In this document: positions 14,471 to 18,570 of the stretch, piece after piece
Layout of the letters: each line of letters starts with the position of its first letter
Numbering within the stretch: the first letter of the stretch is position 1
Source of the DNA: Candidatus Eiseniibacteriota bacterium
GTDB taxonomy: Bacteria > ARS69
DNA: 18,570 bases
Assembly (NCBI GenBank): GCA_052390515.1
Contig: JBQTGV010000152.1
Location: 1-18,570 of the forward strand
Direction of reading: 5' to 3'
Translations under genes and position numbers: made by a program
Notes under the pieces: model-generated
The model's input: only the letters and a program-made list of their open reading frames with translations
Databases searched by the model: none
Told to the model about the DNA's origin: nothing

Positions 14471-15414
14471 CCGCGTTGCCGGAGCGCGTTCGCATCGTCG
14501 AGGTGGGTCCGCGGGACGGCCTGCAGAACGAGGCTCGCCCGGTTCCGACCGCCGCGAAGATCGAGCTCGTCGAGGATCTCGTCGATGCCGGGCTCCTCGA
14601 CGTGGAGGTCACGAGCTTCGTCCGTGGGGACCGCGTGCCGCAGCTCGCCGACGCGGACCAGGTCTTCGCCGGCATCGAGCGGAGGCGGCGCGTCAGCTAC
14701 TGGGCGCTCGTACCCAACGCACGGGGACTCGCGCGGGCGCGGGCGGCCGCCGTCACGCACGTCGCCGTTTTCACCGCCGCGACCGACGGCTTCAACCGCG
14801 CGAACGTGAATGCGACGGTCGCGGAGTCGCTGGCGCAGCTCTCGCCGGTGGTGGCCGAGGCCAAGGCGGCAGGCCTCGGCGTGCGCGGCTACGTGTCCAC
14901 CGCGTTCGGCTGCCCGTACGAGGGTGACGTGGATCCGGTGAACCCGGCGCGCGTCGCCCGCGCCCTGCTCGATGCCGGCTGCGACGAGATCTCCCTCGGC
15001 GACACGATCGGCGTGGCCGTTCCGCCCGACGTTCGCCGCGTGCTGGATGCGTGCGAATCGGCCGGCGTCCCGCGGGAGCGGCTCGCCCTGCACCTGCACG
15101 ACACGTTCGGCACTGCCCTGGCGAACGTCTGGGCGGGGCTGCTGGAGGGCGTCTGCATCTTCGATTCCTCAGCCGGCGGCCTCGGGGGCTGTCCCTTCGC
15201 GCCGGGGGCGGCCGGCAATCTCGCCACCGAGGATCTGGTCTACCTGCTCGATGGGCTCGGCATAGACAGCGGGGTTTCCCTGCCGCGCGTCGCCGAGGCG
15301 TCCGGGCGGATCGCGGCGAAGCTCGCGAAGGCGCTACCCTCCAGGGCGCGGGCGGCCTGGGCGGCGAGAGGCGGGGGGGCCGCGGGTCCCGAAAGTGGTA
15401 CCATGGGTGCATGA
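14467..15414 (+). CDS. liuE: Hydroxymethylglutaryl-CoA lyase
   Basis: EVGPRDGLQNE, FGCPYEG, SLGDTIG, LHLHDT, GLGGCPFAPGAAGNLATEDL; GTGA overlap. Confidence 0.95.
   Translation: MTALPERVRIVEVGPRDGLQNEARPVPTAAKIELVEDLVDAGLLDVEVTSFVRGDRVPQLADADQVFAGIERRRRVSYWALVPNARGLARARAAAVTHVAVFTAATDGFNRANVNATVAESLAQLSPVVAEAKAAGLGVRGYVSTAFGCPYEGDVDPVNPARVARALLDAGCDEISLGDTIGVAVPPDVRRVLDACESAGVPRERLALHLHDTFGTALANVWAGLLEGVCIFDSSAGGLGGCPFAPGAAGNLATEDLVYLLDGLGIDSGVSLPRVAEASGRIAAKLAKALPSRARAAWAARGGGAAGPESGTMGA
15396..15404 (+). promoter_or_regulatory. Extended -10 (TG-G-TACCAT) of a putative leaderless promoter for the EEP gene
   Basis: TGnTAnnnT followed by 6 nt and ATG 15411; no SD; embedded in the last codons of the HMG-CoA lyase gene. 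Confidence 0.6.
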
Positions 15415-17357
15415 TCCCCCGTGGTTTCCGCATCCCGGCCTTCGCACTCGCCCTGAGCGCCGTGAGCGCGTTGACGCCGCGTCCCGCCGACGCCCTGCGC
15501 TTCATGACGTACAACCTGCTGAACTACAGCGGCGGCCGCGAGGTGGAGTTCCGCACGGTCCTGATGCAGACCCAGCCGGATGTGCTGGTGGTGGAGGAGA
15601 TCCTCTCCCAGACCGGCGTCGACAACTTCCTGAACAACGTGCTGAACGTCGTCAACCCCGGCGAGTGGGCGGCGGGAACGTTCGTGAACGGTCCGGACAC
15701 CGACAACGGGTTCTTCTATCGTCCGGCGAAGGTGACGTACCTCTCGCACTTCGTGATCTCGACGTCCCTGCGGGACATCAGCGAGTGGACGTTCCGGCCG
15801 TCGACGCACTCGTCGTCGTCGGCGAACATGCGCGCCTACGTCGTGCATCTGAAGGCCAGCCAGGGCAGCTCGGAGGAGGCGCAGAGACTCGCCGAGGTCA
15901 CCGCCATGCGCGCGCGCATGGAGACGTTCCCGGCGGGGCAGAACTACACGGTGACCGGGGACTTCAACATCTACACGAACACGGAGTCGCCGTACCAGTA
16001 CATGATCAACCCCGCGAACGGCACGGCGGGCGTCGTGGTGGATCCGATCGCGCGCGAGGGCAACTGGCACGATAACCCGGCCTTCGCCGACATCCACTCC
16101 CAATCGCCCCGGACTCTCTCTTTCGGGGGCGGCGCGACCGGAGGTATGGACGACCGCTTCGACATGATCCTCGTCGGACCGGCACTGCTGGACGGAGAGG
16201 GGCTCGACGCGCTGCCGGCGACGTATCGCGCGTTTGCTCAGGACGGGCAGCATTTCAACGGAGCGATCAACGTCGCTCCGTTCGACTCGGTGGACGCCGC
16301 CACGGCGCAGGCGCTGCACGACGCGAGCGACCATCTGCCGGTGTTCGTGGACCTGCAGGGTTACGCCGTCCTGGTGGTCGACGCCTCGCTGGCTCTCGGC
16401 TCGGCCATCGTCGGCGGGAGCGCTTCGGCGAATCTCACCGTCTCGAACGGCGCGGTGCTGCCGGCGGACGACCTGGACTACACGCTGACCGCACCGGCGG
16501 GATTCAGCGCACCGGCGGGCTCCTTCGCGCGGACGGCGGGCGGGGGTGCGGCGCTGCACGTCATCGCCCTCGACACGGCCGGGCCCGGGGCGAAGTCCGG
16601 GAGTCTCACGGTTTCCTCCGACGACCCGGACGCGCTCACCGAGCTCGTGCCGTTGACCGGCACGGTGCTCTCGCACGCGGAGGCCAGCGTCGACGGGATC
16701 ACGCTGCTCCACTCCGGGCTGCTGGATCTCGGCACCGTCGCGGCGGGAGACACGGCGAACGGCGCCGCGGCCGCCCACAACTTCGCCTGGACGGCGCTGC
16801 AGGCGCTGCTCGACGTGCACGCGTTCACGCTCTCGGGGGATCCGCGCTTCTTCCTGGACGGAGGCTTCGCTCCGGCAGCGGTCGGTGCGGCGCCCGCCTC
16901 CTTCGCGGTCGGCTTCGACGCGGTGGGCGCCGCGACCGGAGCCTACGCCGGCACGCTCACCCTGCACACGCGGGACCAGCAGGATCTGTCCGGTGCCGTC
17001 GACCTCGCCGACCTGGTCTGGAGCCTGTCCGCCACGGTGAGCGACGCGGTCGCCGCCGCCTCCGTGTCGGCGCTGCCCGACCGCGACGGCTTCGTCGCGG
17101 TACGTCCGAACCCCTTCGACCCGTTCACCGAGATCTCGTTCGGTCTTCGACGGCCGGGCGGCGTGGAGCTGACAGTCTACTCGGTGACGGGTCGCGCGGT
17201 GGCGAAGCTCTCGTCCGGCGGCCGTGCCGCCGGCGTGCACATCGTGCGCTGGGACGGGCGTGACTCGTCGGGCAGCGCGGTTTCGCCGGGGATCTACTTC
17301 GCCAGGCTCGTCACCGGCGAGGTGGTGGAGACGCGGAAGTTGGTCAAGGCTCGCTGA
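15411..17357 (+). CDS. Secreted endonuclease/exonuclease/phosphatase (EEP) family protein with Ig-like domains and C-terminal FlgD-Ig/T9SS-A-like domain
   Basis: Signal peptide (..ALALSAVSALTPRPADA), EEP motifs MTYNLLN, VEE, HLKA, GDFN, DRFD, SDHLPV; tail PNPFDPFT...WDGRDSSG..VSPGIYFARL...TRKLV. Confidence 0.9.
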   Translation: MIPRGFRIPAFALALSAVSALTPRPADALRFMTYNLLNYSGGREVEFRTVLMQTQPDVLVVEEILSQTGVDNFLNNVLNVVNPGEWAAGTFVNGPDTDNGFFYRPAKVTYLSHFVISTSLRDISEWTFRPSTHSSSSANMRAYVVHLKASQGSSEEAQRLAEVTAMRARMETFPAGQNYTVTGDFNIYTNTESPYQYMINPANGTAGVVVDPIAREGNWHDNPAFADIHSQSPRTLSFGGGATGGMDDRFDMILVGPALLDGEGLDALPATYRAFAQDGQHFNGAINVAPFDSVDAATAQALHDASDHLPVFVDLQGYAVLVVDASLALGSAIVGGSASANLTVSNGAVLPADDLDYTLTAPAGFSAPAGSFARTAGGGAALHVIALDTAGPGAKSGSLTVSSDDPDALTELVPLTGTVLSHAEASVDGITLLHSGLLDLGTVAAGDTANGAAAAHNFAWTALQALLDVHAFTLSGDPRFFLDGGFAPAAVGAAPASFAVGFDAVGAATGAYAGTLTLHTRDQQDLSGAVDLADLVWSLSATVSDAVAAASVSALPDRDGFVAVRPNPFDPFTEISFGLRRPGGVELTVYSVTGRAVAKLSSGGRAAGVHIVRWDGRDSSGSAVSPGIYFARLVTGEVVETRKLVKAR

Positions 17358-17477
17358 AGCCGGGCAACGCCGCAGTCCGGTGGCCGCTACGCGGTTCCCT
17401 TGACTTCCGCCTTGCACGAAGCGCAGGCTGGATACGTCGGCGCGTCGCGGGCGAGGAGCTCTGCGCTCCGTCCGGGA

Positions 17478-17576
17478 GTTCCCCCCTCGGACTCGACTGC
17501 GGCGCGTGGGTAGCTGGCGCCGCCCACTTGCCCGGGGCGCGGCGTCGTCGGTCGGTGCGTGTCTGGAGGGGGGAAC
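17478..17576 (+). promoter_or_regulatory. Structured 5' leader with anti-Shine-Dalgarno stem
   Basis: GTTCCCCCCTC (17478-17488) is the exact reverse complement of GAGGGGGGAAC (17566-17576), which overlaps the SD. Inner GTGGG (17506-17510) / CCCAC (17523-17527) hairpin. Confidence 0.6.
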
Positions 17577-17581
17577 GAACG

Positions 17582-18447
17582 ATGCTCACTCACTCACTCA
17601 CTCACTCACTCACTCACTCACTCATAGCCATGGTCTCGAGACCTGTCGCGCGGCGACGCGTCGCCGTTGGGCTGCCTCGCTCGCCGTTGCGCTGGCAGCC
17701 GTCATCACGGGGACATCTCCCGCCAGATCGCAGGAGAGCGCCACGTGCGCCCACGCGGCAGGAGTGCCGTTCCCCGAGGAGTTTGCCCCGCTACCGGTCG
17801 CGGGAGAGGTGCGGGCGCTCTTCATCCTCGTGAGCTTTCCGGATGAGCCAACTTCCGGCGGCTGCGTCCCGGACCCCTGGCCTCACGATCCAGATCCCGG
17901 GACCGCCGTTCCGGCGTGGGCACCGCTGCTGCTGGAGGAGACGGTCCCACCTCAAGCAGGCTCCGGGTCGCTCACGAACTTCTTCTGGCTCATGTCGGCC
18001 GGTCAACACGCCCTGACCGGGAAGACGTACTCGAAGGTCGTGACTCTCACCGCGGGCATGAGCTACTACCTCACCGACCCGGATGGCAGCGGCCCCCTGC
18101 AACCACCCTCGCTGGCGGCTGCGACCCGAGACGCGATCCTAGCGGTGGACTCGGATCCGGAGATCGATTTCTCCGACTTCGATGCGTACCCGCTGCCGAG
18201 CGGCGATGGCGTCGTCGATTTCGTGTTCGTGTACTACCGGCAGAAGCACTCGGGGACTCCCTTAGGCTCCCTGACGGTCTACGGAGGCCTCGGACTTCTG
18301 AGCTTGACGTCGCCGGTCACCGTGGATAGCGGGCCGGATCAACGGACGGTCGTCAGCTCCAACGGTGTGGAGCTCTTCCCCGACAACGTTCTGAGAGGGC
18401 CCGCCGCGTGCCGCGGGACCGCCCTCCATGAGTACGGTCATCACCTA
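17582..18447 (+). pseudogene. M6 (immune inhibitor A-like) secreted metalloprotease, out of frame at the SSR and interrupted by IS630
   Basis: Downstream frame has a signal peptide (RRRWAASLAVALAAVITGTSPARS) and M6-like motifs VRALFILVSFPD, SLTNFF..MSAGQ, IDFSDFD..DGVVDFVFV, GTALHEYGHHL, then stops shortly after entering IS sequence. Confidence 0.8.
17585..17624 (+). repeat. Perfect tetranucleotide microsatellite (CTCA)10
   Basis: 40 nt read directly, starting immediately after ATG 17582-17584. Confidence 0.98.
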
Positions 18448-18570
18448 GTGTCCTGTTTGGTTAGTTAGCAGCATAAGATTTGGCGATCCGTCGGAGGATG
18501 TCATCGGCACTCTTGGTCCAAGCGAAGGGCTTGGGATCCGCGTTCGTCAGCTCGAGGTACGCTTTGATTG
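18446..18570 (-). mobile_element. IS630-family insertion sequence, right end (partial)
   Basis: Abrupt drop in GC at CTAG 18445-18448; terminus TAGTGTCCTG...; IS630-type transposase C-terminus on the minus strand ends 15 nt from the TA. Confidence 0.85.
18461..18568 (-). CDS. IS630 family transposase, C-terminal fragment (runs off window)
   Basis: Minus strand reads IKAYLELTNADPKPFAWTKSADDILRRIAKSYAAN*, matching the IS630 C-terminal N.dPKPF.WTK.ad.Il pattern; not in the ORF track. Confidence 0.87.
   Translation of the reverse strand: MKAYLELTNADPKPFAWTKSADDILRRIAKSYAAN

Follow-up and report, generated by a model that had tools for sequence, protein, structure and literature searches.

Does a run of ten CTCA units that directly follows a start codon, and that at its present length puts this start out of frame with the protease gene behind it, represent a switch or the debris of a dying gene? 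The question arises near the end of contig JBQTGV010000152.1 (here C152) of an uncultured Candidatus Eiseniibacteriota bacterium (assembly GCA_052390515.1). The whole contig, 18,570 nucleotides (nt) in length, is the window that we analyzed, and it belongs to an assembly of 223 contigs and 4.27 Mb with 70% GC (genome G000). We consider it probable that the C152 locus is a translational phase-variation (contingency) switch that works by slipped-strand mispairing, and that it is one of a lineage-wide set of such switches. From the sequence of the locus and its relatives we infer the start codon, the secretion and the protease activity of the product, and a frequent and reversible change of the tract length in the cells.

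An initial annotation, made from the DNA letters of the window, had described a Shine-Dalgarno (SD) sequence, an ATG at 17582, the tract (CTCA)10 and an ATG frame that ends at 17833, and all of this was confirmed by direct reading, by Tandem Repeats Finder (TRF) and by the open reading frames (ORFs). TRF finds a period of 4 with 10.0 copies that match to 100% and assigns a score of 80, and the tract is the sole perfect tetranucleotide array of the window. Directly 3' of it, at 17625, begins TAGCCATGG. The ATG frame lies inside the ORF 17528..17833, whereas the protease frame is the ORF 17506..18468 (320 amino acids, aa), which crosses the tract as AHSLTHSLTHSLTHSHGLETCRAATRRRWAASLAVALAAVITGTSPARSQ and is offset from ATG 17582 by 1 nt. 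Frame arithmetic joins the ATG to the protease frame when the unit number n fulfills n mod 3 = 2, and with n = 10 (n mod 3 = 1) the gene is off. The annotated consequences, namely an immediate TAG with 9 units, the ON state with 8 or 11 units and the OFF state with 10, were thus correct. Behind the tract, the protease frame encodes a signal-peptide-like stretch in the order basic, hydrophobic, small residues, which reads RRRWAASLAVALAAVITGTSPARS, and the translated domain that ends with HEYGHH comes next. In the relatives of this bacterium, members of the family likewise have an SD and an ATG that head a signal peptide.

Mechanistically, translation would begin at the SD-backed ATG 17582, and the tract would occupy the first signal-peptide codons of a large protein (~1,400-1,650 aa), secreted or located at the surface, which would consist of an M6-like zinc-protease domain with the motif HEYGH, a beta-helix region and a C-terminal domain similar to FlgD-Ig domains and to those of the type IX secretion system (T9SS). 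Slipped-strand mispairing during replication would add or remove CTCA units and thereby connect the protease frame to the ATG or disconnect it. At n mod 3 = 2 the gene would be ON, it would run into an immediate stop at 0, and at 1, which is the present state, an 83-aa off-frame product would be made. We favor ATG 17582 as start because the tract-free homologues start at an in-frame ATG with SD, whereas a GTG at 17506 that lies in the protease frame has no SD. If translation nevertheless started at this GTG, changes of the unit number would still switch the gene, and the ON phase alone would differ.

The reading as a switch is strengthened by the comparison with the paralogues. The genome contains four paralogues of the M6-like protease, and in all four a non-triplet repeat is found 3-27 nt after SD and ATG: (CTCA)10 on C152, (CTCA)7 on C5, (TTCC)8 on C35 and (CT)33 on C207. 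These are the three longest tetranucleotide tracts of the genome and its longest repeat of any kind, (CT)33. The open frames that follow the tracts of the other three paralogues extend over 1532, 1647 and 1310 aa, and that of C152 comprises 354 aa plus 1362 aa on another contig, C143. C152 and C5 have a conserved 5' module in common that includes leader, SD, ATG, repeat and signal-peptide coding region. This module aligns by blastn with C5 19780-19452 over 341 columns at 92.4% identity, and the sole gap, 12 columns in length, corresponds to three CTCA units. Outside the module, the two loci cannot be aligned at the DNA level and the proteins are 51% identical, and within it ~14 substitutions set C152 apart from C5. 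The gene on C5 is intact, with 1444 codons behind the tract, and is thus an intact example of the 5' module of C152. A further post-start (CTCA)n tract elsewhere in the genome, for which the initial annotation had recommended a scan, therefore exists as the (CTCA)7 behind SD and ATG on C5.

The same arrangement recurs in the lineage. The N-terminal domain was searched over 12 genomes, which represent the window's order and the whole phylum in the collection used, and a tract was counted if a homopolymer of at least 8 nt or at least 5 multi-base units lay between +3 and +120 of the SD-ATG. Seven of the 12 genomes contain family genes, 17 in total, and 12 of these genes carry a tract, five in frame and seven out of frame. 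In the relatives, these tracts are G8, G11, G9 and C9 in G007, C9 and C9 in G001, C8 in G008 and C9 in G010. No tract near the start was found in G007:C47, in G007:C1a, which has (ACCGC)5 in its leader, in both G004 genes and in G009:C93, and every homologue that lacks a tract begins at an in-frame ATG with SD. The remaining ~29 kb of family genes within the loci examined contain a single tract of at least 8, and in the 4.8 Mb of G007, three of the 13 C/G tracts of at least 9 sit in family 5' ends. The ATG is offset from the protease frame by 1 in C152, C5, C35 and G008:C73, and by 2 in C207, G007:C20 and G007:C31. G001:C3 and G008:C73 differ by 30 mismatches in 2,862 columns and by one indel, which is the poly-C itself (C9 in frame, C8 out of frame), and C9 is in frame in two species (G007:C3, G010:C92). 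The comparison of orthologs that had been suggested thus revealed a tract near the start in most family genes, with homopolymers in the relatives and (CTCA) of at least 5 units in the window's genome only, and together with the repeats on all four paralogues it strengthened the annotated layout of a contingency locus. The lineage, assumed to be high-GC and probably environmental, is indeed high-GC (70%) and uncultured, and related DNA is present in sequencing runs labelled sediment metagenome and stromatolite metagenome. As all paralogues of this genome and most family genes in the relatives have their own slippery tract at the equivalent place, the lineage seems to maintain a repertoire of surface or secreted proteins, each of which can be switched independently of the others.

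Could such tracts arise by chance? The 4.27 Mb genome contains seven tetranucleotide tracts of at least 4 units, with 10, 8 and 7 units and four times 4 units. In ten genomes simulated with a second-order Markov model, a length of 4 units was reached 25 times and never exceeded, and as the real genome has three tracts of at least 5 units, (CTCA)10 is beyond chance. One of the short tracts, (TCAC)4 at C26 5096-5111 (L069), has the same unit as CTCA and lies between an SD-backed ATG and an out-of-frame signal-peptide-like ORF; we dropped it as a candidate switch, since tracts of four units also arose in the simulations and only short frames follow, and it may represent a relic or have arisen by coincidence.

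The single-contig genome G004 provides an observation of a different kind. At L018 (G004:C1 3569489-3570439), a member of the family is frameshifted directly behind a signal peptide with a lipobox-like end (…ILAC GSK stop) without any repeat, for which pseudogene formation, an error in sequencing or some other mechanism may be responsible. Beyond the lineage, a search with a five-row alignment found 12 loci in genome contigs, two of them in G007 and ten being distant matches in rumen/gut Bacteroidales, and in metagenome contigs ten distant matches of the same rumen/gut Bacteroidales kind. The exact 28-nt leader-plus-repeat pattern had no match in metagenome contigs.

What alternatives exist for a phase-variation switch, and which observations weigh against it? 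All four tracts of the window's genome are out of phase with their own SD-ATG, which has a chance of ~0.2 if phases are random and would also be compatible with decay or with another start codon. Whatever its phase, the window copy is dead owing to the insertion sequence (IS) that splits it. In the 5' direction, the protease frame stays open as far as GTG 17506, whether n is 10 or 7, and a GTG in the protease frame is present in C35 as well. The tract length of n = 10 comes from a single assembly of low depth, and the C9/C8 difference between G001:C3 and G008:C73 could be a homopolymer sequencing error. Finally, as the 11 other genomes of the lineage contain no (CTCA) of at least 5 units, the CTCA unit itself is, judged by this distribution, young. 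Several of these points would be expected if neutral microsatellites had grown in a decaying family, with frameshifts and the IS as steps of pseudogenisation, and the gene G004:C1b, which is frameshifted without a repeat, can be added to them. We nevertheless consider pure decay unlikely, because the ORFs behind OFF tracts are intact (uninterrupted frames of 1532, 1647, 1310, 1373 and 1266 aa), because the tracts of 12 of the 17 genes are confined to the first 120 nt, in contrast to the almost tract-free remainder of the genes, and because several relatives, five in number, have their tract in frame, with the C9 in two species among them. The different units that paralogues have at the equivalent place also speak against decay, as does the excess of third-position differences to a 91%-identical relative in run X2, where 18 of the 33 differences counted fall on the third codon position (33 of 40 listed, beyond which there are 17 more) and one in-frame 3-nt insertion is present.

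A start at GTG 17506 or its equivalents, with the tract translated as (HSLT)n ahead of the signal peptide, would turn n = 10 and n = 7 into ON states and shift the ON phase to n mod 3 = 1. The open frame from this GTG through the tract in C152, the equivalent GTG in C5 and the fact that both CTCA copies have n mod 3 = 1 would agree with such a start, but the GTG is preceded by GACTCGACTGCGGCGC instead of an SD, some 55 residues would come to lie before the hydrophobic core, and in OFF relatives, for example G008:C73, no start codon lies upstream in frame. At 70% GC, an open stretch of 25 codons that contains a GTG has moreover a probability of about one half, as estimated from the base composition, and we regard this start as slightly less likely still than decay. 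Very improbable is a correction of the frame in the transcript or during its translation, through slippage of the polymerase or a shift of the ribosome, which would leave the DNA unchanged and result in a set low expression. Long repeats such as (CT)33 and G11 could in principle promote slippage, as is generally known, but the required shift is not uniform (offset 1 or 2, depending on the gene), which makes a uniform programmed frameshift unlikely, five tracts are already in frame, and no frameshift-stimulating element was identified, with nothing above threshold in Rfam. An assembly artefact, in which the tract length or the linkage to the gene resulted from mis-assembly of two near-identical 5' modules, is the explanation to which we give the least credit. 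It could be argued from run X1, the likely source of the assembly, in which the depth is ~3-6x, no contig spans the C152 tract, contigs are interrupted at positions 17476 and 17689, and the sole contig over the tract has the C5 form. However, the X1 contigs 17253-17476 and 17689-18474 join C152-specific flanks on both sides to C152-type module ends with 0 mismatches, the substitutions that distinguish the C152 module from C5 argue against a mix-up, and other assemblies of relatives contain tracts of a similar kind.

While the phase-variation switch thus remains the reading that we prefer for the family, the C152 copy has been interrupted directly after its zinc-binding HEYGHH. As the insertion lies inside this motif, a change of n alone would not yield a working protease from C152. 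The 126 nt at the contig end recur identically at the ends of C190, C112 and C69, and ends of this IS, which is present in at least five copies, terminate C190, C112, C69, C163, C156, C72 and C52. The other end of the IS is found at C143 15287-15411 (L068), where the remaining protease gene follows with 1362 codons, beginning LVALANTLPTLDGLDVPGHIKSIGRYG. Both junctions have CTAG/TA, the inverted ends comprise ~22 nt, and the interior of the element is absent from the assembly. The insertion is supported by the X1 contig 17689-18474, which spans the boundary between protease and IS with a depth equal to that of the gene, whereas the 91%-identical relative in run X2 continues through the site without the IS. 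The element may be of the IS630 type; its 35-aa transposase tail matched no Pfam family. The features of the window are compiled in Table 1.

Table 1. Features at the switch locus of C152 (window coordinates) and the basis of each assignment
Feature	Position	Strand	Basis
Conserved 5' module of C152 and C5 (leader, SD, ATG, repeat, signal-peptide coding)	17428..17768	+	blastn
Possible anti-SD GTTCCCCCCTC, exact reverse complement of the SD region 17566-17576	17478..17488	+	Direct reading
SD GGAGGGGGG, 8 nt 5' of the ATG	17565..17573	+	Direct reading
Probable start codon ATG	17582..17584	+	SD spacing; repeat-free homologues beginning at in-frame SD and ATG
Slippage tract (CTCA)10, exact	17585..17624	+	Direct reading and TRF
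TAG, immediate stop of the ATG frame if n mod 3 = 0	17625..17627	+	Sequence and frame arithmetic
Putative signal-peptide coding stretch HGLETCRAATRRRWAASLAVALAAVITGTSPARS, in the protease frame	17629..17730	+	Translation (basic, hydrophobic, small residues)
M6-like zinc-protease domain, N-terminal part, up to HEYGHH (18427-18444)	17731..18447	+	Alignment, TIGR03296, fold match
IS end: terminal repeat and transposase C-terminus (stop 18461-18463); contig ends inside	18445..18570	-	Repeated 126 nt

Is the encoded protein indeed a secreted M6-like protease, as had been annotated? The layout with a signal-peptide-like stretch ahead of a zinc-protease domain held, but the assignment to M6 is weak and the copy of the window is cut by the IS. 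In a 15-sequence alignment H250 and E251 are invariant and H254 is nearly so. The M6 model TIGR03296 gives 20.7 bits (E 3e-4) for the window copy and 32.1 bits (E 1e-7) for the C5 paralogue, and neither reaches the curated cut-off of 110.8; Pfam assigned no family to the truncated protein of the window. The AlphaFold model of the N-terminal domain has a mean predicted local distance difference test score (pLDDT) of 70 and a predicted template modelling score (pTM) of 0.72. Foldseek places InhA2 chains (4yu5/4yu6) as the top four matches in the Protein Data Bank (E 1e-6 to 2e-5, probability 1.00, template modelling score only 0.33-0.34), and the next matches are other metzincins with E above 0.01. 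The family has the HExxH zinc site in common with the M6 protease InhA2, which is also the best fold match of the modelled domain, but it differs in its domain context, with beta-helix and FlgD-Ig tail, and its M6 sequence score is far below the cut-off. Based on these models, the label “M6-like zincin” seems fair, but it falls short of M6 membership.

The C-terminal architecture can be best seen in the intact C5 protein, where Beta_helix scores above the Pfam cut-off and the matches to M6, FlgD_ig and the T9SS tail are sub-threshold, the C-terminal domain reaching 21.9 against a cut-off of 23 (TIGR04183) and 21.2 against a cut-off of 27 (PF13860). For the remainder of the window gene on C143 (P0005), PF13860 is contained in a precomputed domain list. 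The protein P0003 from a Joint Genome Institute (JGI) metagenome, an 84%-identical relative, is similar to the C5 protein (P0002) over approximately the first half, and its last ~600 residues resemble P0005. The protease family is, as far as such alignments can tell, a mosaic, which presumably results from recombination between paralogues. The gene upstream of the protease (window 15051-17357, plus strand, up to 768 aa) encodes a FlgD_ig C-terminal domain (E 3e-8), and several proteins with such a sorting-type tail are encoded in the neighbourhood of the protease.

The leader may contribute a second layer of control. The possible anti-SD comprises 11 nt and lies 78 nt upstream of the SD region, and it pairs with the SD in the minimum free energy folds of the C152, C5 and C35 leaders. 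In a three-way leader alignment TCCCCCCTCGGA is invariant, and it is kept even in the diverged leader of C35. The pairing may therefore represent an SD-masking hairpin, although the fold energy of the whole leader is no better than that of shuffled sequences (z = 0.77). A search of 17300-17700 against Rfam gave nothing above threshold, with one sub-threshold match to a small nucleolar RNA (E 0.11), and a scan of 17200-17700 for sigma-70 promoters and terminators found none. C152 and C5 have in common a TTGACT, which in C152 is located at 17401.

Which of the known systems resembles such a switch? In Neisseria meningitidis and Haemophilus, the genes autA and autB carry (AAGC)n just 3' of the start codon in the DNA that codes for the signal sequence, and their alleles are mostly OFF and often further disrupted, with the expression being set by n mod 3 (PMC5118866). 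As in autA/autB, the tetranucleotide tract of C152 lies directly behind the ATG and inside the signal peptide of a predicted secreted or surface protein, and further disruption, in C152 by the IS, is common to both. Of the known systems, autA/autB are the closest counterpart of the proposed C152 switch. The differences concern the unit, which is CTCA in C152, the product, which would be a zinc protease with beta-helix instead of an autotransporter, and the organism, an uncultured environmental bacterium with 70% GC as opposed to host-adapted pathogens. Unlike autA/autB, the C152 genome moreover has four paralogues with three different units, and whereas switching of autA/autB has been demonstrated, that of C152 is a proposal.

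The multigene aspect is better matched by the opa genes of Neisseria, a family that carries (CTCTT)n in the signal-peptide coding region. In both cases, a multicopy surface-protein family has a coding repeat in the leader peptide of each copy, the 5' regions of paralogues are conserved, and the family recombines or is mosaic, which is here indicated by the 341-nt module and by P0003. The opa repeat is a pentanucleotide, whereas the C152 family uses tetra- and dinucleotides as well as homopolymers, and opa encodes small porin-like adhesins in contrast to predicted proteases of at least 1,400 aa. In Haemophilus influenzae, tetranucleotide simple sequence repeats (SSRs) in 5' coding regions are described as translational on/off switches of surface-related genes (PMC2651432). 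This low-GC, host-restricted pathogen differs from the bacterium of C152 also in its targets, which are mostly lipopolysaccharide (LPS) enzymes, adhesins and restriction systems. Proteases are targets in N. meningitidis, where NalP and MspA are autotransporter proteases with homopolymeric coding tracts (PMC3723659). Poly-C/G coding tracts in a secreted or surface protease are thus common to NalP/MspA and the relatives of C152 (C8/C9/G9/G11), but NalP and MspA are serine-protease autotransporters of a pathogen, and the C152 family would be an M6-like zinc protease with a T9SS-like tail.

To our knowledge, repeat-driven phase variation has been described almost entirely in host-adapted pathogens. 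In open-access full texts and bioRxiv, we found no published case of phase variation for this lineage or for the M6-like protease family, and a review of 2025 names soil and ocean bacteria as a knowledge gap for phase variation (PMC11868660). With four protease paralogues and three kinds of tracts, the genome analyzed here offers a clear and testable case in an uncultured lineage of 70% GC, and the C152 locus would be of value as one member of a set, spread over the lineage, of giant secreted proteins that a free-living bacterium switches by means of repeats. Gene callers start these genes 3' of the signal peptide, which hides both the switch and the secretion signal. The source gene models P0002 (C5) and P0006 (C35) begin with MPHEPAQ... 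and MLPVEST..., respectively, inside the mature protein and 3' of tract and signal peptide, and therefore secreted proteins of such lineages are systematically mis-called as cytoplasmic or truncated.

A more far-reaching idea, which we put forward tentatively and would at present rather doubt than defend, is that promoter, leader with anti-SD, SD, ATG, tract and signal peptide form portable 5' cassettes that are swapped by recombination among paralogues, and even between two families of giant beta-helix proteins, which would constitute a pathogen-style “phasome” in a small, deep-branching environmental lineage. The 341-nt module of C152 and C5 would be one example, and the (ACCGC)n leader that an M6-like gene of G007 and a second-family gene of G010 have in common another. 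If this were true, a free-living bacterium could generate a combinatorial, heritable but reversible heterogeneity of its exoproteome, which might, for example, protect it from phages or grazers, or limit the risk that comes with paying for a protease that is a public good.

The second of these families comprises proteins of ~1,200 aa with signal peptide, Beta_helix and FlgD_ig tail, the C-terminal part of which is related to the protease family. In G000 its genes have poly-C tracts of 9, 11 and 7, located at C177 126-134 (L065), C126 7931-7941 (L066) and on C58 (L067), respectively, which in all three cases lie between TTGACG and TACATT or TAGATT, ~140 nt 5' of the ATG, in spacers of 20, 19 and 15 nt. 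By its arrangement, this looks like phase variation by the promoter spacer. Two other paralogues of the second family, L071 and L075 (G001:C2), have C9 at +35, both out of frame, and in G007:C1 (L072) a (GCCTC)11 lies upstream of a second-family gene. The leader with (CCGCA)6 of the second-family gene in G010:C8 (L076) matches the leader with (ACCGC)5 of an M6-like gene in G007:C1 (L016), and this match suggests that 5' switch modules can move between gene families.

Other repeats of the genome were noted during the survey. An intergenic (CCGGCTC)6 at C221 853-894 (L003) follows closely on a stop codon and precedes an open frame of 187 codons, and was dropped as a 5' coding switch because it is intergenic. 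Poly-G/C runs at contig ends (C136, C138, C4, C81 and others) were set aside as likely ends of sequencing or assembly. Within contigs, a G11 on the minus strand at C98 11400-11410 lies ~25 nt before an SD and ATG, a C9 at C154 29183-29191 follows ~18 nt after a TTATAAT box and stands ahead of a 1,211-codon frame, and a further G11 is found at C121 31250-31260 near the 3' end of an ORF.

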